Source of the DNA: Savitreella phatthalungensis
Taxonomy: Eukaryota
Direction: 5' to 3'
Length of the DNA: 41,975 bases
Assembly: GCA_051599415.1 (NCBI GenBank)
Contig: AP039697.1
Coordinates: 496,001-537,975, forward strand
Positions 2,772 through 39,209 of this stretch are shown in pieces. The notes beneath the pieces are model-generated. The model searched no databases. It was not told the origin of the DNA and saw nothing but the letters and a program-made list of their open reading frames with translations. Each line of letters opens with the position of its first letter. Position 1 is the stretch's first letter. Made by a program: the position numbers and the translations under genes.

Positions 2772-3734
2772 ATGAATCCATCTGCGGATCCAGAATCGAT
2801 ACGACTGTCGCTGCTCTCCAATCCGCAGATGCTCGCGCAACTTCGAGCGCAACAACCGGCTCTAGCAGAAGCGGCGGTCAATGATCCTCCGCGCTTTGCG
2901 CAGATGCTCAGAGATATGGCTCGACAGCAGTACGAAGATCAAGCAGAGCGCGATCGTCAATATCGTGCACTTGAGGACGATCCGTTCGATGTTGAAGCGC
3001 AACGCAGGATCGAGGAGATCATCCGGCAAGAAGCGGTACTGGATAATCTCAACAATGCTATGGAATATCACCCGGAGTCATTTGGCCGAGTGACGATGCT
3101 CTACGTCGATGTCGAGGTCAATGGACACAAGGTGAAGGCATTCGTCGACTCCGGCGCGCAGGCAACGATCATGTCGCCGGATTGCGCTGAGCGCTGCAAC
3201 TTGACTCGTCTGATCGATAAGCGTTTTGCTGGCATTGCGCACGGCGTCGGGACAGCCAACATCCTTGGTCGCGTCCACTCCGCCCAGGTCAAGGTCGGCA
3301 GCATGTTTATCCTCTGTAGCTTTACGATCATGGAAGGCAGAACAGGTCCCGAGATGCTGCTTGGACTTGACATGCTTAGGAGACACCAGGCCAATATCGA
3401 CCTGGGAGCAAACAAGCTACGCATCGGCAACGAAGCCGTCCGATTTCTGGATGAGCATGAAATACCTGCTGAAGCCAAAGACGTGGAGGCTAAAGCGAAG
3501 ATGTCGGCAGTGCCATCAAACCCATCGCAGCTCGACCGACAGGCGCCATTGACATCGCAACCGGCTTCGACAGGGCCAATGGCATCGTCGCAGCCCTCTG
3601 TCAGGGGCGCGGCTTCAACTGAGAAAGTGCAGCAGTTGATCTCCATGGGCTTTGATCACGCGGAGTGTGTGCATGCACTTGAAGCGACAAGGGATGACGT
3701 CGAACTGGCAGCAGGCATTTTGCTGGGCAATTAA
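2772..3734 (+). CDS. DDI1: DNA damage-inducible aspartyl protease / ubiquitin receptor Ddi1 (Mud1-type: HDD-RVP-UBA, no UBL)
   Basis: Retroviral-protease-like motif AFVDSGAQATIMS, LLGLDMLRRH, and a C-terminal UBA (QLISMGFD...ALEAT..DVELAAGILL). Confidence 0.93.
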   Translation: MNPSADPESIRLSLLSNPQMLAQLRAQQPALAEAAVNDPPRFAQMLRDMARQQYEDQAERDRQYRALEDDPFDVEAQRRIEEIIRQEAVLDNLNNAMEYHPESFGRVTMLYVDVEVNGHKVKAFVDSGAQATIMSPDCAERCNLTRLIDKRFAGIAHGVGTANILGRVHSAQVKVGSMFILCSFTIMEGRTGPEMLLGLDMLRRHQANIDLGANKLRIGNEAVRFLDEHEIPAEAKDVEAKAKMSAVPSNPSQLDRQAPLTSQPASTGPMASSQPSVRGAASTEKVQQLISMGFDHAECVHALEATRDDVELAAGILLGN

Positions 3735-8234: not shown

Positions 8235-8909
8235 ATGAGTGCTGTCAGGCGTAAAGGCTCCCTGACGCCTTCGCAGCTGCGTCAAAAAGGGGGCACGGTC
8301 AGAATCCGAGGCAAATCAGCTTCGAATCAATCGGCATCACAAAGTGGCGAGATTGAGCAAGAGCGAAACGAGGCAGAGGCCATTCAGGACGAGAACGAAG
8401 CAGTTCAAAACCATGAGGAGCAGGAAACATCTCAGCATTTCAATGAGGGAACAAACGATGCTTCAAGCTCTTCACAGCGCTCAGCTGCGGATATTCTGGC
8501 GGATCACGAAGCTCGTCGACAAGCTCAGCGTGATAGAGCCCCGCAGAAAGGATCTCAGGAAAAACGTCCGCTTGGCTCGCATCTGTCGTTCGGCGGACCG
8601 AAGAGCAAATTGTTCGCTCGCCGGCGCTTGATCTCACGTGAACCGCGTAAGGATGCCTTGAGTGGCATCACCAACAATGACTTGCGTCGGCTGGCTCGTC
8701 GTGGTGGAGTCAAGCGTGTGAGCGCTGCAATCTACCCTGAAGCTCGACGAGCCATGCGCGATTTCGTTCGACCGCTCCTTGGCAATATTGCGGCAATCGT
8801 AGAGATGCGAAAGCAGCAGACCGTCACATACAAAGACGTGATTTATGCGCTCAAGTTCGCTGGCAAGACGCTATATGGATTCAGCAATGATGTCAAAGCG
8901 AAGCGTTGA
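8235..8909 (+). CDS. Divergent histone H4-like protein (H4 variant) with a long N-terminal extension, 224 aa
   Basis: First ATG at 8235 (the ORF track starts at a GTG at 8169). The C-terminal DALSGITNNDLRRLARRGGVKRVS...TVTYKDVIYALKFAGKTLYGF aligns without gaps to H4 residues 24-100. Confidence 0.85.
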   Translation: MSAVRRKGSLTPSQLRQKGGTVRIRGKSASNQSASQSGEIEQERNEAEAIQDENEAVQNHEEQETSQHFNEGTNDASSSSQRSAADILADHEARRQAQRDRAPQKGSQEKRPLGSHLSFGGPKSKLFARRRLISREPRKDALSGITNNDLRRLARRGGVKRVSAAIYPEARRAMRDFVRPLLGNIAAIVEMRKQQTVTYKDVIYALKFAGKTLYGFSNDVKAKR

Positions 8910-19902: not shown

Positions 19903-20979
19903 TCACCGTCTACGCTTCGCCGGCGGTGTGACTTTCTTACACGCGTCACAGAACCATGATCCTCGTGGCGGTGCGGTCAAGTTGACGCAAGCGAGGTGGA
20001 ACCATTCGCGTTCGCAGTCGTCACCATCACACGCAACCATCTCGCCGTAGGACACCTGGTTACAGTAGCAGTAGGTCGGCTCATCGTCCGGCGCATTAGC
20101 GATAGCTGCTGCTGCCTGCGCGGCCACCTTGGCTGGCAGCAAAGGTGACAAGGACCGACGGCGGGGCTTCGACTGCCTGCCCGTGCGGGATACGGTGACC
20201 TTTGACTCCGCATAGCTGCTGCCGTGGCTGCCTGCGTTGTGATGTGCGCCACCACCGCTCCCTTGACCGCTCGTGCCTCCTTGCTTCACATGCACGCCAC
20301 CATTGGCGGTCTCCTCTCTGTAACCGACAGCCGGATGAACGGCTGACGACTGCTTTCCTGAAGTCGTCGTCACACTCGGTTTCTTATTCGAAGGTGGCTC
20401 GATGCGCTTAGGCGCATTACGTATTGCAGCTTGAACGGAGTTGATACGAGGTGGTGGGGTTCCTTCGCGCAAATGCTGCGGAATCTCAACGTCTCTCAGT
20501 AGAGCGAAGTCTCTGTCAAGCCTAGCCATATGGCGCGAGACAACATCTGCAGCTGCAGATGCGACAGAGACCTTCTCATCAGAATATGCGAAACCCTGCA
20601 TGATGAGCTCCTTGATGCGCACAAGTCTCTCCGATGCGCGTTGATGGGCCTCTTCTTGAACATCCTGCTCTGTACCCGCGTCTGAGACGTCTCTGTCGAC
20701 TGCCGACGCCTGTGACACTGGACGGGCTACCGTGGCTAAGCCATCCGTCAATGCTTGTTGCGGCGGATCGATCAAAGGAGCTTTTGAGCCTTCGATCGCT
20801 GTGGATTCCATCGGTAACTCGTCCATGAACAGCTGGATCTCCTCGATCAGCTGCGCCTGAAGCCCCACTGTTTTGCTGTCCACTTCTCGCAGGAGGGTGA
20901 AATTCCGCACGAGGTCTGCCGGTAATGCCTCAATGGCGTCGCAGAAGTCATTGAGTGCAGGCAAGATCTGAGCCGACAT
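19903..20979 (-). CDS. ING-family chromatin protein (Yng2/Pho23/Png-like) with a C-terminal PHD finger
   Basis: N-terminal ING domain ([22 protein letters not shown]...DEKV..A......RH..RLD) and [36 protein letters not shown]...P.GSWFC..C. Confidence 0.93.
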
Positions 20980-21373
20980 TTTCCCTTGAGAAGACCGGAC
21001 GATGCGATTTTCTTCCGTTCAGCACGCTCTATCTGTCCTGGTGCTTGTCCAGGCTCGCTGGGAGGAGGATGGTCCTGGATCACACTTCTAGCTGTTGCTT
21101 TTGACGCATTCTCGGTGCATCGATCATGATCGATCATATCAGTCGACAAAATAAATCCAGCCTACGCGCCTCCATCTAAAACTCTGGACAATTAGGGTAG
21201 ATATCCATACCACCAAAAGCACTTATACAGCGGCCGATCGGGAAGATGTCCACGGCGTTCCAGGGCTGCAGGACTGAGTAAGCGTCTTGGCTCCACCACA
21301 AAGAGCTCACAGGATCGATACTGAACACGACTGGCGATAGGTGAGGCACACGCTCCATACGCGAGCGACATCC

Positions 21374-22912
21374 ATGGCCTTCGGTGCGCTCTGGGATGGC
21401 CTGACCCGGCGCTTTCTCTCGATTCAATGGTTAATCGCTCTTCTTGTCGACCTCGCTCCATTGTACCCACGCTGGGTCATCTTCAAGCTGCCGCATGCCA
21501 TCAGCAGTTATTATGTGGATACCTTCAATGATCCCCTGGCGGCTGGCCGCAGCAAACCGGGAGGCTGGTATCATTCACTCGTCTGGCTCGAGATTGGAAT
21601 TCAAGTGCCACTGTCCCTCTGGATCGCGAGGCAATATCGTCGAGGCCGACAATATGATACAAAGACTCTTGCAGGTCTGCTATTTTACGGCGCCCAGGTC
21701 GCAACAGCGACTTATGCTTGTATATATGAGATGCTTTCTTTTGATGCCGCAACCTTAAGGGCTCAAGAGAAGCTGATCCTTTTCAGCTTCTTTGTTCCTT
21801 ATGTCATCCTGCCGCTGGGCTTCGTTTTCACTGCCGTACTACGCCTTTGCGCCAATACTCACAAGGCAAACCAACAGGCAGCTGTCCTGGCATATATCGG
21901 TCGACAAAAAGTCGATAGCCTCACTTATGTGGTAACCGGTGCAAACTCCGGCATCGGATTTGCCATAGTTGAGCAGCTGATCGATCAGTCAGAGCTCGCA
22001 TTGCAGATGAGAGTCGTTCGACTTCAGCTAATACTGACAGTCCGAGATCAGAAGAAAGCACAGGCGACACGAGTGAGACTACAAAGCCGCCTCGAGCGGT
22101 ATGATATCGAAATCACGTTTGTCATTCTCGACCTGTGCTCGATGGCGTCTGTCTCGGCTGCAGTGAAGGACATCAAGTCGCACGTGTCATCGATCGATGC
22201 GATCATTCTGAACGCAGGCATGGCCGAATTTGAGCAGCTGAGCGTATCGATTGCAATCAAACAGGTCCTCACTCGTGGTGTAGTGCATGCCATCACATAT
22301 CCTGAATATAAGGTGCAACGTCTCGGCTCGAAAACCGCCGATGGCATGACACGCATTTTCCAGGCCAATTTCTTTGGTCACTACATTATGGCTAGTCTAC
22401 TGGAGGACATCAGCAAGGCCGCCATCTGGATGAGTTCTCTTGAAGCATATAAGGAAAACTTTGATCCTCAGGACTGCCAGGCTTTGAGCCATCGCAATGG
22501 ATATGAGTCGAGCAAGCGCCTCACAGATATCATGTTCTTTGACCAGCGCGCTCGCTCCAATGGTCGCAGGTTACATCTGGTGCATCCCGGCTATTGCTCG
22601 ACCAACATCGTTTCAGCCGTTCTTCCGAGGCCTCTTCTCTATCTGTGGGAGCTCACTTTCGACTTCATGTATATATGTGGCCACCGCTTCCATACCGCCA
22701 CTGCTTATAACGGTGCCTATTGCCCAGCAAGAGTCGCTCTGAATGTCGACGTCCTGTCACAAGACGTCAAGTGGGGCTCAACCGTTTCTAGACTAGGCGT
22801 CAGTGGCATTGGAGTCACCGATTTCCCTACAGTCGATCTCAACGAGCCAGCAACAAAGCAAGTGGTCCGGGAGGTTAATGCGCTGCGCCAGGAATGGCTA
22901 AATAGACTATAG
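21374..22912 (+). CDS. ERG27: Fusion protein: N-terminal EXPERA (TMEM97/Ema19-like) membrane domain + 3-keto-steroid reductase Erg27
   Basis: The N-part has LLVDLAPLYP, YYVDTFNDPL, W..S.VWLEI..QVP, YG...AT.T..CI.E and PYVILP (EXPERA). The C-part has VVTGANSGIG (21929-21958), LILTVR...KA, ILNAG, FQANFFGHY, IWMSSLE, YESSKRLTD (22502-) and HPG (Erg27-type SDR). No stop between the two. Confidence 0.85.
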   Translation: MAFGALWDGLTRRFLSIQWLIALLVDLAPLYPRWVIFKLPHAISSYYVDTFNDPLAAGRSKPGGWYHSLVWLEIGIQVPLSLWIARQYRRGRQYDTKTLAGLLFYGAQVATATYACIYEMLSFDAATLRAQEKLILFSFFVPYVILPLGFVFTAVLRLCANTHKANQQAAVLAYIGRQKVDSLTYVVTGANSGIGFAIVEQLIDQSELALQMRVVRLQLILTVRDQKKAQATRVRLQSRLERYDIEITFVILDLCSMASVSAAVKDIKSHVSSIDAIILNAGMAEFEQLSVSIAIKQVLTRGVVHAITYPEYKVQRLGSKTADGMTRIFQANFFGHYIMASLLEDISKAAIWMSSLEAYKENFDPQDCQALSHRNGYESSKRLTDIMFFDQRARSNGRRLHLVHPGYCSTNIVSAVLPRPLLYLWELTFDFMYICGHRFHTATAYNGAYCPARVALNVDVLSQDVKWGSTVSRLGVSGIGVTDFPTVDLNEPATKQVVREVNALRQEWLNRL

Positions 22913-28861: not shown

Positions 28862-31800
28862 TCACCGGCCTGCCAGGACTCCCGCAGCACTGCAGCTGTA
28901 AAGTGCAGGATCGTAGCACGCCTGCCCACAAGCCTGTGTGACAACGCCGTTGATGATTGGGCATAGCTGGGCATCGCTGTAACAAGTGTAGGAAGACTTG
29001 TCGTACGTCGTGGTCCCGCAAAGGCCTAAGCCTCCGGAGACAGGGGTCGCGCCTGCTTCAGCACCCTGAGCAAGCTTGCCCGTCACAGTATCGCAGTGGT
29101 ACAGCGCTGGGTTGTAGCAATCGTTGCCGCACAGCTTGGAGACGACATTGCCCTGGATCGGACACAGCTTGTTGCCGTAACAGGTGTACGAGGCTGGATC
29201 GTACTGAGCCGCGCCGCAAGACTGCAGGCTCGGAGCCGAGACAGGCTTGGGAATCGACGAAGCTACACCGACGAGAATCTGGCCTGATGGACAAGCGTAT
29301 TTCGCTGGATCGTAACACGCACCTGCGCAGTTGTAGTAAATCGTGCCGGCTTGAATCGGGCACAATTGCGAATCGTCCCAGCACACGTACCAGCCTTCAG
29401 TGAATTTGGTGCCCGCGCATGTGCCACTGGTTGTGTAGATGCGACCAGATCCTGTAGCAGAGCCAACCTGACCTGGAGTCATGTCAGACGCGCCAGGGGC
29501 GAGAGCAGCGCCAGAGGACGCAGCCACGACTCCCACTGTCGTCGTCTCGGAAGGCGCGGTAGTCACTGGAAGACCAGCACCTGGTCCGCCCGCGGTCGAG
29601 CCGGTCGAACCGGATGAGCCAGTGGCACCAGCGGATTCAGTCGAGCCGCCCGAGCTATTGGGCGGCGCGGAGCCAGAGACTGCGCCAGTGCCAGAGTTAC
29701 CAGATGAGCCAGTAGAGCCCGAGGAGGAGCTGCCTTGATTGTTCGAGACAGAATCTCCGGGTGGCGAACCACTCGAGCTCTGAGATCCGGAGGTCGAGCC
29801 ACTCGAGATAGTGGAACCAGAAGAGGACCCGGTTGAGTCAGACGATCCAGATGACCCAGACGACCCAGCGGAACCGGTCGAGGCAGAAGATCCAGGAAGG
29901 CCACTCGAGCTAGAAGAGCCGTTTGAGCCTGATGATTCGGTCGAAGTGTCTGTGCCACTGTTGCTAGAGCCTGATGATGCGCCTGCATTCGTGCCGCTGG
30001 CAACACTCGATCCAGCGCCAGAGCCAACCACAGTCTGCGTCGACGAGGACTGCGTTACTGTAGTCAAGGTCGAACCGCCAATTGTTAGCGTGCCGCCACC
30101 AGCAGTGATCGTTGTGGGCGGCAAGACCGTGGTAGATGTGGTTGCAACAACAGTAGTCGACGTTGCGGCCGGGACACTAAAAGCCGAGGAGCCAGTCGAG
30201 GCACTTGATGCACTAGCCGAAGAGGTTGACACGCTTGAGGTGCCAGCGGATGTGCTTGTACTGCTTGAAGCAGATGTACTCGTGTTCATCATGACGCTCG
30301 CGCTGCTGGAAGGAACGGTCGAGGTGGTCGAGACGATCGAGTCCATGGAGCTCGCGGAAGAGGGTAACGTGCCACTCGTAGATACGCTGCTGGGAAAGAT
30401 GGCAGATACAGACACGCTTGAACTTGCAGGTAGAATCACTGGCGAGCCTGAGACGGTGGTCGAGAGGGAGATCGTACTTGTCAGCGAGACCGGAAGCTGA
30501 CTGGTTATGCCAGTGACGGTCGCCGTCACAGGAACGGTGCCAGAAGCAGTAACAGCCAGCTGGAAGTTGCCAGCACCGCCAAGACCGGCAGCGTATGTCA
30601 GATACCAGGTCAAGGAAGCACCTCCGTCCAACCAGCTAGAACTGTAGTTGGGATCACTGAAGGTCTGATATGCTGCGGTAGCGTTAGATATCGCCAGGTT
30701 GGCATACAGAATGCCCTTCCAGCCAGACGTGAGTGTTGGCGCCAGGGCGCCCAAAAGAGCAGACCATTCCTGTGCAACAAACTTAGGCTGGCGAATGAAG
30801 GCTGAGACCGGAGTCAATGGGATCATGTGAATACCCTGAATGTATTCAAGGTTGCTGCCAAAGTAGGTCGTGTGGTCGATCTTGTTCTCAAAAGTGATGC
30901 CCGCCACATAGTTGTTGATCATGGCAGGAGGCATGACTGTGTTGTCGGGTCCGAGAAGCATGTAGTCATTCATAGCCCGCCGCATGATGGAGAGCTGCAG
31001 ATTGGCGCGGGCTTCCATGGACGGATCACCGATGACCTTACCCCACAGCTTGATAGCGTATATCGAGTTGTAATCTTCCGAGCTCGACTCTTCGTCTTTG
31101 CCGTCCGCGGATTCTGTAATACCGTGTGCCCAACTGTGTCCGGCGAACCAGTCGAAAGAACGAGAGAAGGGCAGATACGGATCGCTGGTCGACGGATTGG
31201 CGTAGTCACGAATCAAAGTATTGACCCAGGCTTTGTTCTTTCCTTGCTGCAACCAGGTCGGGTCGATGTGCGCGATAACAGCAGCGGTATAAACATGATA
31301 GCCGTAGTGGAAGTGATGGTCATTGTAGACAGCATTGCCGAAGTCGCAATCCCGCTGAGCTGTGCCACCGGCGTCACCACAACTCGACATGACGCCCTTC
31401 CAGACGGTGTCATATGCGACCGGGTTGATATTGCTGCTGCCAATGAATGGGGCGAAGGCAGACTTCAGAGATGACAAGCACGAGGTCGCGTCAGAGCCAA
31501 GAACGTCATTGACAACGAGACAGATCTGCGCGAACTTGGCCAGAGCCTTCCCAGAGAAGTACATGCTGTCCATGTTGGTCTGAGCAGCCATGTTCTGTTG
31601 CAGCTCGGCGTTGGCAGCCTTCGCGATAAGCTGCAGAGCAGAGGCAGAATAGTTCTGCAGATTTCCAAGCGGACTCCACGGCAGCCAGTTGATGTCGGTT
31701 GGCAGGTTGTTCTCGCTGAATGAAAGTGTATTACCCTGATATGCACGCATCAATCCTTTGGTGTTGGACCAAAGCTTGAGCGAGGTCGGTACGCCGGCAG

Positions 31801-33037
31801 AGACGGACTCCTGGAGATGGGGGTAGACGAATGTCAGGAGCGGCAGGCCAAGTAGTTGTACTGGACTGTAGCTGAATGAGTACGTCGCGACCTTGCCAGA
31901 ACCCTGGCCACTGACGATGGCACCGGTCGGGTAAGTTCCGACCGATGAATCGTATGTCGCCTCGTCGGCGTTGGTGAAGCCTGCAGGTAGCTTCGCAACC
32001 TGAAGAGCACCGGTCCAGGGCGCGTTGCCAGCGAGTTGTGCACCGTTTGTTGCAAGCGTCAAGCTTAGAGGAGTAGAGGACGATGAGATGGCGTATACAA
32101 GCCAGGTGTCGCCGTTGTTAATATTGAGCCTCCATTTTGTGACGCCGGAAGAGACGCCCACAGGTGCCTTGAATGACACAGGCGTCAACAATGTGAAAGC
32201 TGCAGTGCCGGAGAAGAGGCGAGGCGTTAAATTGTTGTACCGCATGGTGAGCAACGCATTGCCATGCACGAGAGTAATGACTGCGCTGCCACTGCCAGAG
32301 GTCAGCGTGACGTCAAGAGATTGGGACTGGATGTTAGAATTTTGCAGAGCAGGCGCATTCGAAGTGAATTCTGTAGCACCGAAGCCCACCGGGCAGCGTC
32401 CCACAGGAGCAAAATAGTAAGAAGGATCGCCGTTAAAGCTGCCGCCATACACATAGTCGGACGCGGCGTTGTTGCTGACGCAAAGGCCGTTACTCTTGTC
32501 CAGGTTAAGAACGTAGGGCATTGGGTAGATCTGCGAGGTCTGACCGCCAACCAGCAAGTTCGTGTAAAAGTTATTGGTCTGAATAGGCGATCCAGAAGTA
32601 CCTCCGTATTGAGAAGCGACGTTCAGCGGCGGCTGAAACTGTTCCGTCGTCGTACGTCCAAGAACAGCAGCTGGGTTATCGGTAGCGATGCTCGCGAACA
32701 GATCATTCGCGATTGCATTGGCGACGACGGTCGGCTTTACGAGGTTTGTGGTGAGAGAAGTTGTAGCAATCGAAGGAGCGTTGGCTGTTGTCGCTTGCGT
32801 TACTGTAGATGGCACGATTGGATCTGTCCCTGTCTGGGTAATTGGCGTATAGCCGCTCGTTGCGGAAACGGCTGCAAGAGTTCCATTCGCGACTTGAGGG
32901 GAAGCTGTTGCATCAGCAATCGTGGCGGTGTTCACCGAGGTGCCCGTTCCCGCCGAGGACTGTCCAGCAGCCAGGCCGAACAGTGCCGCAGCAGCGGCCG
33001 CTGTGGTCGTTGTAGAAAAGATTGTAGGTTTCCTCAT
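28862..33037 (-). CDS. ENG1: Secreted GH81 endo-1,3-beta-glucanase Eng1 with a Ser/Thr/Gly linker and three Cys-rich CBM52-type repeats
   Basis: Signal peptide; PIQTNNFY, SMYFSGKALAK, DFGN..YNDHHFHYGY, RSFDWFAGHSWA.G, DGKDEESSSED and FENKIDHTTYFG...EYIQGIHM motifs; three C-terminal CG...Y....Y.C....LCP.......CG..CY.P..Y.C repeats. Confidence 0.95.
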   Translation of the reverse strand: MRKPTIFSTTTTAAAAAALFGLAAGQSSAGTGTSVNTATIADATASPQVANGTLAAVSATSGYTPITQTGTDPIVPSTVTQATTANAPSIATTSLTTNLVKPTVVANAIANDLFASIATDNPAAVLGRTTTEQFQPPLNVASQYGGTSGSPIQTNNFYTNLLVGGQTSQIYPMPYVLNLDKSNGLCVSNNAASDYVYGGSFNGDPSYYFAPVGRCPVGFGATEFTSNAPALQNSNIQSQSLDVTLTSGSGSAVITLVHGNALLTMRYNNLTPRLFSGTAAFTLLTPVSFKAPVGVSSGVTKWRLNINNGDTWLVYAISSSSTPLSLTLATNGAQLAGNAPWTGALQVAKLPAGFTNADEATYDSSVGTYPTGAIVSGQGSGKVATYSFSYSPVQLLGLPLLTFVYPHLQESVSAGVPTSLKLWSNTKGLMRAYQGNTLSFSENNLPTDINWLPWSPLGNLQNYSASALQLIAKAANAELQQNMAAQTNMDSMYFSGKALAKFAQICLVVNDVLGSDATSCLSSLKSAFAPFIGSSNINPVAYDTVWKGVMSSCGDAGGTAQRDCDFGNAVYNDHHFHYGYHVYTAAVIAHIDPTWLQQGKNKAWVNTLIRDYANPSTSDPYLPFSRSFDWFAGHSWAHGITESADGKDEESSSEDYNSIYAIKLWGKVIGDPSMEARANLQLSIMRRAMNDYMLLGPDNTVMPPAMINNYVAGITFENKIDHTTYFGSNLEYIQGIHMIPLTPVSAFIRQPKFVAQEWSALLGALAPTLTSGWKGILYANLAISNATAAYQTFSDPNYSSSWLDGGASLTWYLTYAAGLGGAGNFQLAVTASGTVPVTATVTGITSQLPVSLTSTISLSTTVSGSPVILPASSSVSVSAIFPSSVSTSGTLPSSASSMDSIVSTTSTVPSSSASVMMNTSTSASSSTSTSAGTSSVSTSSASASSASTGSSAFSVPAATSTTVVATTSTTVLPPTTITAGGGTLTIGGSTLTTVTQSSSTQTVVGSGAGSSVASGTNAGASSGSSNSGTDTSTESSGSNGSSSSSGLPGSSASTGSAGSSGSSGSSDSTGSSSGSTISSGSTSGSQSSSGSPPGDSVSNNQGSSSSGSTGSSGNSGTGAVSGSAPPNSSGGSTESAGATGSSGSTGSTAGGPGAGLPVTTAPSETTTVGVVAASSGAALAPGASDMTPGQVGSATGSGRIYTTSGTCAGTKFTEGWYVCWDDSQLCPIQAGTIYYNCAGACYDPAKYACPSGQILVGVASSIPKPVSAPSLQSCGAAQYDPASYTCYGNKLCPIQGNVVSKLCGNDCYNPALYHCDTVTGKLAQGAEAGATPVSGGLGLCGTTTYDKSSYTCYSDAQLCPIINGVVTQACGQACYDPALYSCSAAGVLAGR

Positions 33038-34699
33038 GCTTTGAGGTGTCGGTTATGTGTTTGCTCGGCGGCCTGCGCCAAAGTTTTGTCAAGAAGGAAA
33101 GCTCGTCTTCCTTATGCCCTCGTGCTAGTGTCTCTCGCTCTCGACCTCTCGATATGGTGTCTGTCCAGGTCAACTGAAGACGAACGTGCGATACCCGTGA
33201 AGCGAGTGAAACGGGAAGCGAGCGACCGAGGGAGTCGGACGAGAAATCGTCCGGTATGACAAAGGGGTCGTCTTATGGTCCATGCAAAGATGGGAAGAAA
33301 GCTTGCGTGCCGTGTAGCACAGACGGGCTTCGACGCGTGCGGCGAGCGCTGCCCATGGCTTTGCGTGGTATATGATGATGTCCCGCGCTGCTGCTGCTGC
33401 ATTGCAGAGCCTTATTCCACAACCCGCACAGGGGTTAGCTCAGGCTTCCTTTCGCCCATCACCTTCTCCTTATTGGCCTAAGGGGTAAAAAGTGGATGCA
33501 ATCTGTGTTGTTTTCAAGATTCCAGTGCGCTGAGTCTGCGATTGGCAACAGAACGCTTCGATTGTTTTCTTCAAAATATGACCAATGCGGCTGGTCACCT
33601 CTCCTAAAGTAGAACATTTAGTCGAACGCAATTTGATTGCAAGGACATTCAACCAAACCCGGAACACTTGACAGCTATGTTAGTCTTCGGCCTGGATCAT
33701 CTTCGAAAATGTCGTTTTCGTAAGACCTTCTGTGGCTATGCGTTGAGAAAGGGGCAGGAGAGGGCAGAAATCAGATGTCCTCGCTCATTTCTCGAACTCG
33801 GGATTCCCGCTTCCGAAGAATGAGCATCTATCGAGACAACAAGTCATGGCAAGCCGTGATCTCTCCTCCTTTCTAGACTGCAATTCATCTTGGTCGTCGT
33901 CAATATTGCTGAAGCACTCTTCTCATATGTACTCTCTGAATAGTTGGTCATGGCACCACTAAGCATTGGCAAAGTGCATTTGGACGGAACATTGCCGTTG
34001 CAACGACTCCCGCGTGATGTCTTAGTCAGGAATGCGCAGCGATCACAAGGAAGCACTTCCTAGAGATTCGCTTGAATCGAACGCATTACAGATAATCTGT
34101 GGTGCCAACTGAGGCTGCCTAACCATGGCCAAACGTCATAGGTCGTGGAGGTGGAAAATAGGAGAGGCGGCGACTGCAATTTGAGTTCCTGCAAACTTCA
34201 TAGCACCCTTCTGACCTCTGGTGCGTCTCTCTGAGGACTCTACAGCTCGATGAAAGTGAGACCTTCTTAAGGCAGTCTTGATCGAGAATCTCGAAGAGGT
34301 TCGGGAACTGATGGCTCTTCCTCTTTGTGCATCGAGCCATTCAAATCCTGCATGCATTTTGACTAAAATTGTTTCGATTCGTCTTCGACTGGACGATCAT
34401 ATCTACACAAACGTGATCTGATTTGCACTGGCAAATACGTGAGTCCAATGACGAATCCAAATGTCTGTGATCCAGCCGAAGCGCGAGTCCACGAATGACC
34501 CTGTGCGAATACGTTTGTAACACTCTCCAGGCGTTCAGGAATCGATTTCCTGAGTACTCTGACCGTCTCGCGACCTTTCATGACCTGGTCAAGAAACGCA
34601 AACACTCACACCAACCGGTAACATCTCTGACGGGTACTTTCTTGTCTTATCGCTGTAGGCCACTGCTCAGCATCGAGAAGTGCTCTGCGCAAGCCTGAT

Positions 34700-35764
34700 A
34701 TGGAGCGCGAGCAGCAGCTGCTCGAGCAAATCGCCCAGGTCGCGGGCGCTATCAACAAGCATAATAATCGCAGTGCTGTTGCCAAGGCGTCCTCTCAGCA
34801 CCGTGTCTGGACACCGGGTCAGACACACAATAGACCCCAACAGGCTTCGTTCAATCGATCGCTTGTACTCGGCCAAAAGCGTAAGGCTGGCGCTCCCACT
34901 GAGTGGGTGAGTAGCAGAAATCGGGGTCACTTGACTCTCACAAATGTTGCGGTTTATGACGACAAGACGGCGCGAAAGCTTGCGCGCCTCGACGAGGCAC
35001 GATCCGCAGCCCGCCGAGAACGATTGCGACAGCGTGAAGAGCGAGAGCGAAGGGAACTTAAACAACTTGCTCAAACGACCCTCGTCCATGATGGTGTCAC
35101 ATATCGCTTCAATAAGCGCTTCAATCTGCTGATCCGAGTGAATACTGATGGTCCGCCCACGCCAATAGAGACCACTATTCATGGCGTCGTCTTCCTCAAA
35201 TCACCGAAGTCTGAGAATCTGTTCCGGAAGACCGCGGTCAAGCTTCTCTCACAACACCGCGCAAATAAAAACAAGCATCTTGCCGGTCAATGTCGGAATT
35301 TTTGCAGAACGGGGGTGTGTCGGAAGAACGATAAAGGGCAATGCTGTTTCTCGCACGATCGTGCGACACGCGCAGTCTGCAGGTACTGGCTACGACACGA
35401 ATGCAGGCATACGAAAGCGGCTGACTGCAGACTAATTCACGAGCAAGCGAACTTGCACAACAAGCCGGATTGTACGAGGCATATACACGAAGACGCTGAC
35501 GATGACTGTCGCTTCGGCCATCGTACAATTGCTTCTCCGGGATTAGCATGCAAGATCTTCGCCAGGACGGGCTGGTGTCCTGTAGGTGGAGCTTGCCCAC
35601 GCGGGCACAATCGAGAATGCACGAGACGTCCGTGTGACGATCCAAAATGCAGATTGGATCACCCTGATCGACAGCGCGTCGACGATTTCTCAGACTCGAC
35701 AGATACCTTCAGCGAAGAGGACTTCGACGAGGCTGCATTTGATGCCGACTTTGTGCATCTGTAG
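34700..35764 (+). CDS. Multi-CCCH zinc-finger protein, ZC3H3 / S. pombe Red5-like
   Basis: N-terminal LLEQIAQVAGAINKH helix, NRSLVL and WVS..R motifs; tandem CCCH fingers (CRNFCRTGVC...CCFSH, VCRYWL..C....C.L.H, CKIFARTGWC..G..C...H..EC). Confidence 0.72.
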   Translation: MEREQQLLEQIAQVAGAINKHNNRSAVAKASSQHRVWTPGQTHNRPQQASFNRSLVLGQKRKAGAPTEWVSSRNRGHLTLTNVAVYDDKTARKLARLDEARSAARRERLRQREERERRELKQLAQTTLVHDGVTYRFNKRFNLLIRVNTDGPPTPIETTIHGVVFLKSPKSENLFRKTAVKLLSQHRANKNKHLAGQCRNFCRTGVCRKNDKGQCCFSHDRATRAVCRYWLRHECRHTKAADCRLIHEQANLHNKPDCTRHIHEDADDDCRFGHRTIASPGLACKIFARTGWCPVGGACPRGHNRECTRRPCDDPKCRLDHPDRQRVDDFSDSTDTFSEEDFDEAAFDADFVHL

Positions 35765-37946: not shown

Positions 37947-39209
37947 ATGTCGGCCATTGCCTTCCCACTTCTCGCTCTCGCCCTCGGCTCCCTGAAGATC
38001 AACAAGCAGCAGCAGCAGCAACAGCCGCAGCAGCAGTTGAAGTTCGTCGTCGGTGAAGCTCCGCAAGTCCCACTGACACTCGCCATCGTCGGGCGCCTTG
38101 CCTTCGCCAAGGCTACGTTCAATGCCAAGATCGCAGCCCTCGAGGCTGCTATGATCGATGACGACGCCGACTTCTCGCGTCTCTCGGCCGGCGAAATGTG
38201 CTCGCCGCCTTCCTTCACGGCCTGGTCGCCCATCGTTCAGCAGACCGCGACTATCCTCGGAGAGATCTTCGAAGACGAGATCGATCTCGACGATGCTGAC
38301 TGCGATGTTTCTTTCCTCGATCTCAACGGGTTCGCCTCTTCTGCTCCAACTTCAGCCTCGCCCACCCTGTCTGACTGCGAGTGGTTCAAGTGCCCATCCT
38401 CACCATCTACCTGTTTCTTCGACTCCGCTTACGGCAGCGACACTGAGGGTGCCTTTGACGAGAGCTCAAAGGACGAGCTGATCTCCTACAAAGATTTTGT
38501 CTCCGGTATCACCTGCGAGAATGTCGATCTCCCTGAGTCCACACTGATTTGTGAAGGGGAGCAGCTCGAAAACGTGGAGGCCTTCACCAGCTTCGATCGC
38601 GACCTGGAGTCAGAACTCGGCAAGCTCGTCGAGGATCTTGATGAGCCGATGAAGGACAATCTTATCGCCGATACTGCCATCGTCGCCGACACCACTGTGT
38701 GCAAGCCCTCTGACCTCGAGATTCCTGCTCCTATCAACGATGCCAACGCCCTATTTGCACTCCTGGACCACGAGGCGCCCAACGAACCCAAAAGCGCGGA
38801 TCCCATCAGCCCAGCAGTTGTCGTCCAGCAGTGCTACCCCGTCATCCACGAAGGTCCAGGCCCGAACGATCTCTACAGCAACTCAGCCCGCGTCAGCGCT
38901 GGGCTCGAGACGGAAGACAAGCCTGTTGATTACAAATCGCCTTATGCTATCAGCTACAGCCTCGTCAACCGCAACGAGTCACGTCTTCGCGTGACCGTAC
39001 TTGGTCAGCGCTTCAGCAACAATGATCGCTACAACATGACCGTGATTGAGACGGCAGACATTCGATGCCGCGCGTTGCCGAAGCTCATGCGCACCCTGGT
39101 CGGCAGCAAATCCGCAGTGCAGATCAACACTACAGTCATCGATATTACGCGCGCGGTCAGCGACGTCGCTTATCGCCGGAAGCTCGGTCAGGAGCACATT
39201 GCCGCCTGA
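37947..39209 (+). CDS. Orphan acidic protein with a hydrophobic N-terminus and polyQ; probably continues by frameshift to 39406
   Basis: 420-aa ATG ORF with strong C-ending codon bias, preceded by a TATA-like CATAAAAG (~37799) and a pyrimidine-rich leader. No family recognised. Confidence 0.65.
   Translation: MSAIAFPLLALALGSLKINKQQQQQQPQQQLKFVVGEAPQVPLTLAIVGRLAFAKATFNAKIAALEAAMIDDDADFSRLSAGEMCSPPSFTAWSPIVQQTATILGEIFEDEIDLDDADCDVSFLDLNGFASSAPTSASPTLSDCEWFKCPSSPSTCFFDSAYGSDTEGAFDESSKDELISYKDFVSGITCENVDLPESTLICEGEQLENVEAFTSFDRDLESELGKLVEDLDEPMKDNLIADTAIVADTTVCKPSDLEIPAPINDANALFALLDHEAPNEPKSADPISPAVVVQQCYPVIHEGPGPNDLYSNSARVSAGLETEDKPVDYKSPYAISYSLVNRNESRLRVTVLGQRFSNNDRYNMTVIETADIRCRALPKLMRTLVGSKSAVQINTTVIDITRAVSDVAYRRKLGQEHIAA

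Follow-up and report, generated by a model that had tools for sequence, protein, structure and literature searches.

What does it mean when an enzyme of sterol synthesis shares a polypeptide with a membrane domain of the sigma-2 receptor family? This question is raised by a single gene (21374..22912, forward strand) of the fungus Savitreella phatthalungensis, located in a stretch of 41,975 nucleotides (assembly GCA_051599415.1, contig AP039697.1, positions 496,001 to 537,975) which we refer to as the window. A first-pass annotation, made from the letters of the window, proposed that the gene encodes an EXPERA domain of the TMEM97/Ema19 kind fused in frame to the sterol 3-ketoreductase Erg27, a Rosetta-stone fusion linking the two families. 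Both families are well known, and it is their covalent union that is the unusual part. The proposed link has been strengthened by the analysis described here, as the same fusion was found in 12 distinct proteins that fall into one clade.

The first issue is whether the two domains are truly encoded together. As had been claimed, the gene is a single ATG-to-stop frame, uninterrupted over 512 codons, a run that would be free of stops by chance with a probability of about 1e-10 given the base composition. Each of the remaining five frames across the same span contains 17-29 stops. On its 5' side the frame is closed by a TAG at 21338-21340, 11 codons before the ATG, which makes 21374 the first possible ATG. 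Methionine is found at positions 1, 120, 212 and later in the protein, with none between residues 120 and 212. The earlier statement that some 65 codons before the Rossmann motif lack an in-frame Met thus agrees with the count (67 codons), and the reductase part is left without its own start codon. The entire 1.7 kb stretch was recovered with 0 differences in two contig sets of one sample, which may itself be the source of the window, so that this match is not independent. Of greater weight is a 341-base contig from a different study: across 21833-22173, where the linker and the Rossmann motif are encoded, it matches the window at every base and with no gap. This identity speaks against the loss of a stop codon or an indel within the linker, and neither was found there. 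The fusion is real at the DNA level. A candidate intron inside the reductase part (around 21990-22042), which has the GT...AG look, was rejected, as the protein aligns residue for residue through this region with other fused proteins and with unfused Erg27; its length of 53 bases, which would break the frame, also rules it out.

The N-terminal part was assigned to the EXPERA family by several kinds of comparison. Pfam PF05241 (EXPERA) matches residues 45-151 (E 6e-15), scoring 56 bits on the full-length protein and 60 bits on residues 1-165 alone, against a gathering cut-off of 25.7 bits. In a phmmer search of the PDB, the sigma-2 receptor (TMEM97) was the only significant match for this part (7m93 and five further entries, E 2e-4), and no EBP sequence in the PDB was matched at E up to 10. 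A model of residues 1-169 built with 11 relatives (predicted local distance difference test, pLDDT, 91.3; predicted template modelling score, pTM, 0.83) places helices at 2-26, 65-89, 96-122, and 130-175, together with a capping helix at 35-51. The top ten PDB matches of this model in Foldseek are all bovine sigma-2 chains (7mfi/7m93/7m94), with template modelling (TM) scores of 0.70-0.76, root-mean-square deviations (rmsd) of 2.4-3.5 Å, and 21-24% identity. EBP (6oht, 8w0r), a delta-8/delta-7 sterol isomerase whose substrates are the delta-8 sterols produced by Erg27, belongs to the same EXPERA superfamily and shares PF05241, but it is a weaker fold match than sigma-2, at ranks 14 and 23 (TM 0.63 and 0.59, rmsd 4.8-5.8 Å, E about 2-3). 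The language-model features of residues 1-165 lie nearest to the Atlas clusters "Sigma intracellular receptor 2" and "Efficient mitochondria targeting-associated protein 19" (Ema19), at 0.91-0.92, and 24 of the 30 feature matches carry PF05241. Judged by these matches and by the model, the N-terminal domain is a member of the TMEM97/Ema19 branch of EXPERA, closer to the sigma-2 receptor than to EBP, as the first reading had it.

The sequence hallmarks of the family are also in place. These comprise LLVDLAPLYP (residues 23-32), YVDTFNDPL (47-55), WLEIGIQVP (71-79), YGAQVAT (105-111), and PYVILP (142-147). All the motifs listed in the first-pass annotation were found where they are expected, with a correction to the spacing of WLE..Q: three residues separate E73 from Q77, not two. 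With sigma-2 (bovine 7m93-7m96, 7mfi) and Ema19, the domain shares the same four-helix EXPERA fold and keeps the counterparts of the pocket residues. These were mapped with a HMMER alignment to 7m93, in which native numbering equals chain numbering minus 6, and the sigma-2 residues Asp29, Tyr50, Asp56, the acid at 73, and Gln77 correspond to D26, Y47, D53, E73, and Q77 of the fused protein. Y47, D53, E73, and Q77 are invariant in all 12 fused proteins and D26 in all 11 sequences that cover the position; T111 and T113 are likewise invariant among the fused proteins. Differences from the known proteins are also evident. TMEM97 and Ema19 are free-standing and about 170-180 residues long, whereas the EXPERA domain described here is the N-terminal third of a 512-residue protein and runs into an enzyme of 330 residues. 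In addition, unlike sigma-2, the fused protein has a three-residue insertion after the DPL motif, and G58 of this insertion is conserved in the alignment of the fused clade.

The C-terminal part was described from the outset as a complete Erg27-type short-chain dehydrogenase/reductase (SDR), and closer comparison upholds this. Pfam adh_short matches residues 186-291 (E 9e-10), and KR was also matched. Residues 8-335 of the 338-residue Erg27 of Schizosaccharomyces pombe (O74732) align to residues 186-511 (E 5e-40, 33% identity), a full-length match, and the homologues from Neolecta, Saitoella, and Pneumocystis give E values of 3e-45 to 1e-36. Further named relatives are a Dothideomycete Erg27 and a fish HSD17B7. 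By whole-protein features, HSD17B7 and 3-keto-steroid reductase are the Atlas clusters that lie closest (0.91). The motifs TGxxxGxG and NAG and the Ser-Tyr-Lys residues of the active site are intact, and hydrophobic helices, which S. pombe Erg27 and HSD17B7 share, are found near residues 409-434 of the full-length model. On this evidence the C-terminal part is an SDR of the Erg27/HSD17B7 type with intact motifs. It differs from the known Erg27 and HSD17B7 proteins at its start: those begin a few residues ahead of the Rossmann motif, without the membrane-spanning N-terminal domain that the fused protein has. The PDB holds no close relative of the reductase part, the best match being a plant monoterpene reductase that covers the first 105 residues only.

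How are the two parts held together? The full-length model (pLDDT 86.9, pTM 0.73) shows an unbroken helix at 142-175, followed by a strand at 181-187. From residue 155 to the Rossmann threonine (T188), the connection measures 33-39 residues in all 12 fused proteins. A Met occurs somewhere in the linker of five of the 12, at differing positions. L172, which lies in an "L.YL"-like motif, is invariant despite an identity of 19% in the linker. The loop at residues 86-100 carries 5 Lys and Arg against 1 Asp or Glu, and by the positive-inside rule it would face the cytosol; with four helices, the C-terminus would then be cytosolic as well, as in TMEM97, both termini of which are reported to face the cytoplasm (bioRxiv 10.1101/2021.04.29.441652). 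Docking of residues 1-165 against residues 180-512, run without the alignment of relatives, gave a score of 0.01 against a mark of 0.34, which is not evidence either way on a contact between the domains.

If the fusion were an accident of one genome, its relatives would be expected to lack it. The first-pass annotation had suggested looking for it in related fungi, and it was found there: 11 further distinct proteins of 492-585 residues contain both domains in the same order. In a word-based homologue search, nine of the 24 non-self matches were fused (492-585 residues, 39-51% identity, 86-100% of the query aligned), all of them unnamed and from Logan or ENA assemblies. An exhaustive HMMER run against 1.84 billion representatives yielded 744 matches at E up to 1e-3; among the 150 matches listed, five span both domains (the query, P0002, P0005, P0146, and P0147), one is a 149-residue EXPERA-only piece of the fused type, and 144 match the reductase part only. 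By exact look-up, P0146 is CCG82961.1 of Taphrina deformans PYCC 5710 (UniProt R4XER1, 498 residues), which is named "3-keto-steroid reductase" and has the same two-domain architecture, with 43% identity over residues 8-502 of the window protein and a place in the same clade. Erg27 is a stand-alone protein in Neolecta (317 residues), S. pombe (338), Saitoella (350), and Pneumocystis (337).

A maximum-likelihood tree of the SDR domain (25 rows, with every chosen sequence kept) unites the 12 fused proteins and a fragment from Protomyces in one clade with support of 98/95, in which P0147 branches first. The unfused Erg27 of Neolecta, Saitoella, S. pombe, and Pneumocystis, a Saccharomycotina sequence, and the Pezizomycotina sequences lie outside. 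From these relationships we infer a single fusion event in the ancestor of the Taphrinomycetes, with the fused gene being the Erg27 of this lineage. Among the 12 fused proteins, which are 34-58% identical overall, the mean pairwise identity (66 pairs) reaches 51% in EXPERA and 47% in the SDR but falls to 19% in the linker; the EXPERA part is no less conserved than the enzyme, and both parts are under selection. The window itself fits this placement. It is compact, intron-poor fungal DNA of about 52% G+C, and its NOG1 is 80% identical to that of Taphrina deformans, 79% to Protomyces lactucae-debilis, 68% to Saitoella, and 64-65% to Schizosaccharomyces. The host is therefore a member of the Taphrinomycetes, which agrees with the Taphrinomycotina origin implied earlier.

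Two public gene models in this clade deserve comment. The Protomyces lactucae-debilis protein ORY86883.1 (P0148, 312 residues, "partial") opens directly with the Rossmann motif and lacks an initial Met. By BLASTP it is 40-46% identical to the fused proteins and 27-38% identical to the unfused Erg27s compared, and it nests in the fused clade; the Protomyces gene is therefore probably fused too, with its public model cut short. The T. deformans model lacks about 19 residues (window residues ~80-98), from the last part of the second membrane helix and the loop after it, which are present in all 11 other fused proteins. This gap is probably a mis-called intron.

The prospect that the fusion might prove to be annotated widely in fungi, which would remove its novelty, was not borne out: as judged from the homologues sampled, the fusion is confined to one fungal class and is not widespread. 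A scan of metagenome contigs, in which 80 loci were kept, reached 29% identity at best and covered the SDR part only. Ten of these loci, those whose stop-to-stop frame is 250 residues or longer and has over 130 residues ahead of the SDR motif, were scanned with Pfam, and none of the ten had an EXPERA domain. Two of the loci (L047 and L073), which are unrelated, have an AhpC/TSA_2 domain and an SDR in one stop-to-stop frame and are either another kind of SDR fusion or two genes lying end to end. The whole-protein search of Atlas, which covers clusters of at least 50 members, gave no cluster combining EXPERA and SDR among the matches shown, all of which were of the Erg27/HSD17B7 type, and this is no evidence of rarity.

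In the open-access full texts and bioRxiv preprints searched, no description of an EXPERA-Erg27 fusion was found, and TMEM97 and Erg27 appear together in unrelated mentions only. Neither "fusion" nor "fused" occurs in the available portions of the paper that defined EXPERA (PMC4263179) and of a phylogenomic study of sterol synthesis (PMC2817430), and the T. deformans genome paper, in its accessible sections, mentions sterol genes only in general (PMC3648899). The claim that the fusion is undescribed therefore stands with regard to the literature but not with regard to the data, since the fused sequence has been public as T. deformans R4XER1. The architecture, named for its reductase only, is unremarked rather than new, and public listings of domain architectures presumably give both domains for R4XER1.

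What then might the EXPERA domain contribute to Erg27? We regard it as likely that the Erg27 of Taphrinomycetes is fused at its N-terminus to a TMEM97/Ema19-type EXPERA domain that serves both as an anchor in the endoplasmic reticulum (ER) and as a sterol binder. In the ancestor of the class, the gene for Erg27, the sterol 3-ketoreductase of C4-demethylation, would have been permanently joined at its N-terminus to an EXPERA membrane domain. The four EXPERA helices would lie in the ER membrane with both ends cytosolic, as in TMEM97; the last membrane helix would project about 10 residues beyond the membrane, and the Rossmann fold would start about 5 residues later. Such an arrangement would clamp the NADPH-dependent reductase to the cytosolic face of the ER, beside its own hydrophobic helices (around residues 409-434). 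In baker's yeast, Erg27 depends on a separate scaffold, Erg28, which is reported to anchor Erg26 and Erg27 at the ER (PMC2817430); in the fused protein, by contrast, this role would fall to the EXPERA part as a built-in membrane anchor. The pocket would in addition bind sterol in order to pass it on or to sense it, and the domain may also stabilize the enzyme. Its use is suggested by the fact that it is conserved as strictly as the active site, and the likeliest ligands would be the delta-8 sterols that Erg27 uses and gives off (4-methylzymosterol and zymosterol), because sterols of this kind are what EXPERA enzymes and receptors are tuned to. The sensing of delta-8 sterols was raised by the authors of the sigma-2 structure, who describe a pocket that is closed to the lumen, opens sideways into the bilayer, and can hold cholesterol (bioRxiv 10.1101/2021.04.29.441652).

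Several observations weigh against this proposal. The sigma-2 pocket is reported to lie nearer the luminal side of the membrane (bioRxiv 10.1101/2021.04.29.441652), whereas the reductase would be cytosolic, and direct transfer of sterol between the two sites is not obviously possible. At the position of sigma-2 His21, the window protein and its nearest relative instead have Gln, while nine of the fused proteins have His and one truncated sequence does not reach the position. Moreover, sigma-2 Asp56 takes part in a hydrogen-bond network described as important for folding (bioRxiv 10.1101/2021.04.29.441652), so that the conservation of the pocket could reflect folding and not the binding of a ligand. 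That the gene yields one messenger RNA and one polypeptide is something we infer solely from the frame and its conservation; the seven sequencing runs listed for this stretch included no RNA run, which says nothing about its expression. Lastly, 10 of the 22 inner branches of the SDR tree are open, leaving the fused clade unplaced with respect to the Erg27 of other Taphrinomycotina or of Saccharomycotina.

The same observations can be read in other ways. It is unlikely, in our view, that the EXPERA domain is a passive anchor which merely tethers Erg27 to the ER, with a pocket that has no role in ligand binding and no implication for the function of TMEM97 or Ema19. The tight connection between the last helix and the Rossmann fold in the model would suit an anchor, as would the need of yeast Erg27 for the separate anchor Erg28 (PMC2817430), and, given the folding role of Asp56, the conserved "pocket" residues could be structural. 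Far more change would be expected of a mere tether, however, than is seen in a domain at 51% identity against 47% for the enzyme, and D26, Y47, D53, E73, Q77, T111, and T113 would not be expected to stay invariant in proteins that are 34-58% identical overall. At the opposite extreme, the EXPERA domain could be catalytic in its own right, for example as a delta-8 to delta-7 sterol isomerase like EBP, which would make the protein a bifunctional enzyme, perhaps tied to the end sterol of the clade. The products of Erg27 are delta-8 sterols, the substrates of the delta-8/delta-7 isomerase, and the paired acidic residues of EBP-type isomerases have invariant counterparts here. Taphrina and Protomyces, from the clade in which the fusion occurs, are also reported to contain brassicasterol in place of ergosterol (PMC2878339, PMC3648899), but the coincidence of this trait with the fusion is a single shared event and a correlation only. 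The domain is nearer to the sigma-2 receptor than to EBP, and sigma-2, with the same residues, is reported neither to have rescued erg2 yeast nor to have converted zymostenol in vitro (bioRxiv 10.1101/2021.04.29.441652). Most sterol genes are described as conserved in the T. deformans genome paper (PMC3648899). A second catalytic activity is on balance improbable, and less likely than a passive tether.

Doubt may also fall on the enzyme or on the unity of the protein. The SDR part is only 29-33% identical to the named Erg27 of S. pombe, Pneumocystis, and Dothideomycetes, and the branch of the window protein is long, as might be expected if the fused gene were a diverged extra copy whose substrate is some other 3-keto or 3-hydroxy lipid, and a canonical ERG27 lay at a different place in the genome. 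Yet the closest named relatives are all Erg27 or HSD17B7 over their full length, the T. deformans protein that bears the name 3-keto-steroid reductase is the fused one, and the fused clade sits where the Taphrinomycetes orthologue would be expected, its position among ascomycete Erg27 being poorly resolved. No second Erg27-like protein of Taphrina or Protomyces was found among the ten best-scoring non-window proteins for which a name was looked up, a small sample. A paralogue with another substrate is thus quite improbable, slightly more so than a bifunctional enzyme. Two separate products, whether from genes that abut in frame or through a stop lost by assembly error, are the least likely of the rivals and very improbable, given the open frame in 12 proteins. 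A linker of 40 codons would be free of stops by chance with a probability of 17% at this base composition, but the frame is open through the linker in 12 proteins at 34-58% identity with the linker length conserved; the reductase of the window gene lacks a start codon, the linker Mets of five relatives stand at differing places, and the linker DNA is matched by the contig of another study. An anchored reductase with a sterol-binding EXPERA domain is therefore the reading that we favor.

The fusion also bears on proteins beyond this class of fungi, as it hints at the job of the TMEM97/sigma-2 family, whose molecular role is unsettled. Sigma-2 (TMEM97), at which drugs and imaging agents for cancer, pain, and neurodegeneration are aimed, is reported to bind sterols and to resemble a sterol isomerase without being one (bioRxiv 10.1101/2021.04.29.441652), and yeast Ema19 has been linked to quite different processes. 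A class-wide fusion with a kept pocket is independent genomic evidence that would place the TMEM97 family beside the 3-keto reduction of C4-demethylation, and it suggests that the free-standing TMEM97 and Ema19 proteins may work alongside post-lanosterol sterol enzymes. Knockout of TMEM97 in human gastric cancer cells was reported to lower cholesterol synthesis and to raise post-lanosterol FF-MAS (2026; PMC13382799), which agrees with a role near the post-lanosterol part of the pathway; the same study reports that TMEM97 does not bind TM7SF2 or DHCR24 (PMC13382799). A more general idea, which we hold tentatively and consider rather doubtful, is that TMEM97/Ema19-type EXPERA proteins at large are sterol-binding partner subunits of the 3-keto/3-hydroxy sterol SDRs of the C4-demethylation machinery, and that they would capture or sense the released delta-8 sterols. 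If so, the Taphrinomycetes would have hard-wired a partnership that is non-covalent elsewhere among eukaryotes, including humans (TMEM97 with HSD17B7/NSDHL). The sigma-2 receptor would then gain a concrete biochemical context, and a relation to the brassicasterol pathway of the clade would be possible. The fused protein offers a directly testable system for the function of the TMEM97 family. It may be of practical interest as well. Taphrina causes peach leaf curl, and Erg27 is the reported target of hydroxyanilide fungicides, which means that the fungicide target in these pathogens is an enzyme of unusual architecture.

Table 1. Coordinates of the fused gene, its parts, and its upstream neighbor in the window (aa, amino acid residues; UTR, untranslated region).
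Feature	Residues (aa)	Position	Strand	Evidence
Whole coding frame for the fused protein (512 aa + stop)	1-512	21374..22912	+	Open reading frame; 11 further fused homologues
EXPERA (TMEM97/Ema19-type) four-helix membrane domain, predicted	14-155	21413..21838	+	Pfam; phmmer against PDB; model; Foldseek
Counterparts of sigma-2 pocket residues		21449..21604	+	Alignment to 7m93; conservation across 12 fused proteins
Linker: predicted cytosolic extension of last membrane helix and short coil	156-183	21839..21922	+	Alignment; full-length model
Erg27/HSD17B7-type SDR domain	184-512	21923..22909	+	adh_short/KR; S. pombe Erg27; Atlas
Rossmann nucleotide-binding motif TGANSGIG	188-195	21935..21958	+	T188, G189, N191, G193, G195 invariant in 12/12
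NAG	280-282	22211-22219	+	Invariant in 12/12
Catalytic Ser355 (in SSLE, aa 354-357)	355	22436-22438	+	Invariant in 12/12
Catalytic YESSK (Y377, K381)	377-381	22502..22516	+	Invariant in 12/12
Upstream intergenic region, presumed promoter and 5' UTR		20980..21373	.	Shared with divergent ING/PHD gene
ING/PHD gene, divergent from the fusion gene		19903-20979	-	Window gene list

The fusion gene is surrounded by ordinary housekeeping genes. A Vti1-type SNARE gene follows 106 bases downstream, and the other genes of the window encode NOG1, a Ddi1-like protease, a GMA12/MNN10-family transferase, SdhB, eIF2-alpha, and a GH81 glucanase. Among the window genes identified around the fusion gene there is no other sterol gene nearby. 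Three open frames on the forward strand (8235-8909, 34700-35764, and 37947-39209; 224, 354, and 420 residues) match nothing in Pfam at E up to 1e-5. The Ddi1-like protein (2772-3734, forward strand; HDD, retropepsin-type protease, and UBA) starts at the HDD, with no ubiquitin-like domain reported in the frame, and an upstream exon of this gene may be missing from the simple open reading frame. A 331-residue open frame (32264-33259, forward strand) runs antisense to the 5' part of the GH81 gene and is most likely a chance frame. The GH81 endo-1,3-beta-glucanase itself (28862-33037, reverse strand, 1391 residues) ends in three C-terminal "Carb_bind" (PF10645) repeats.

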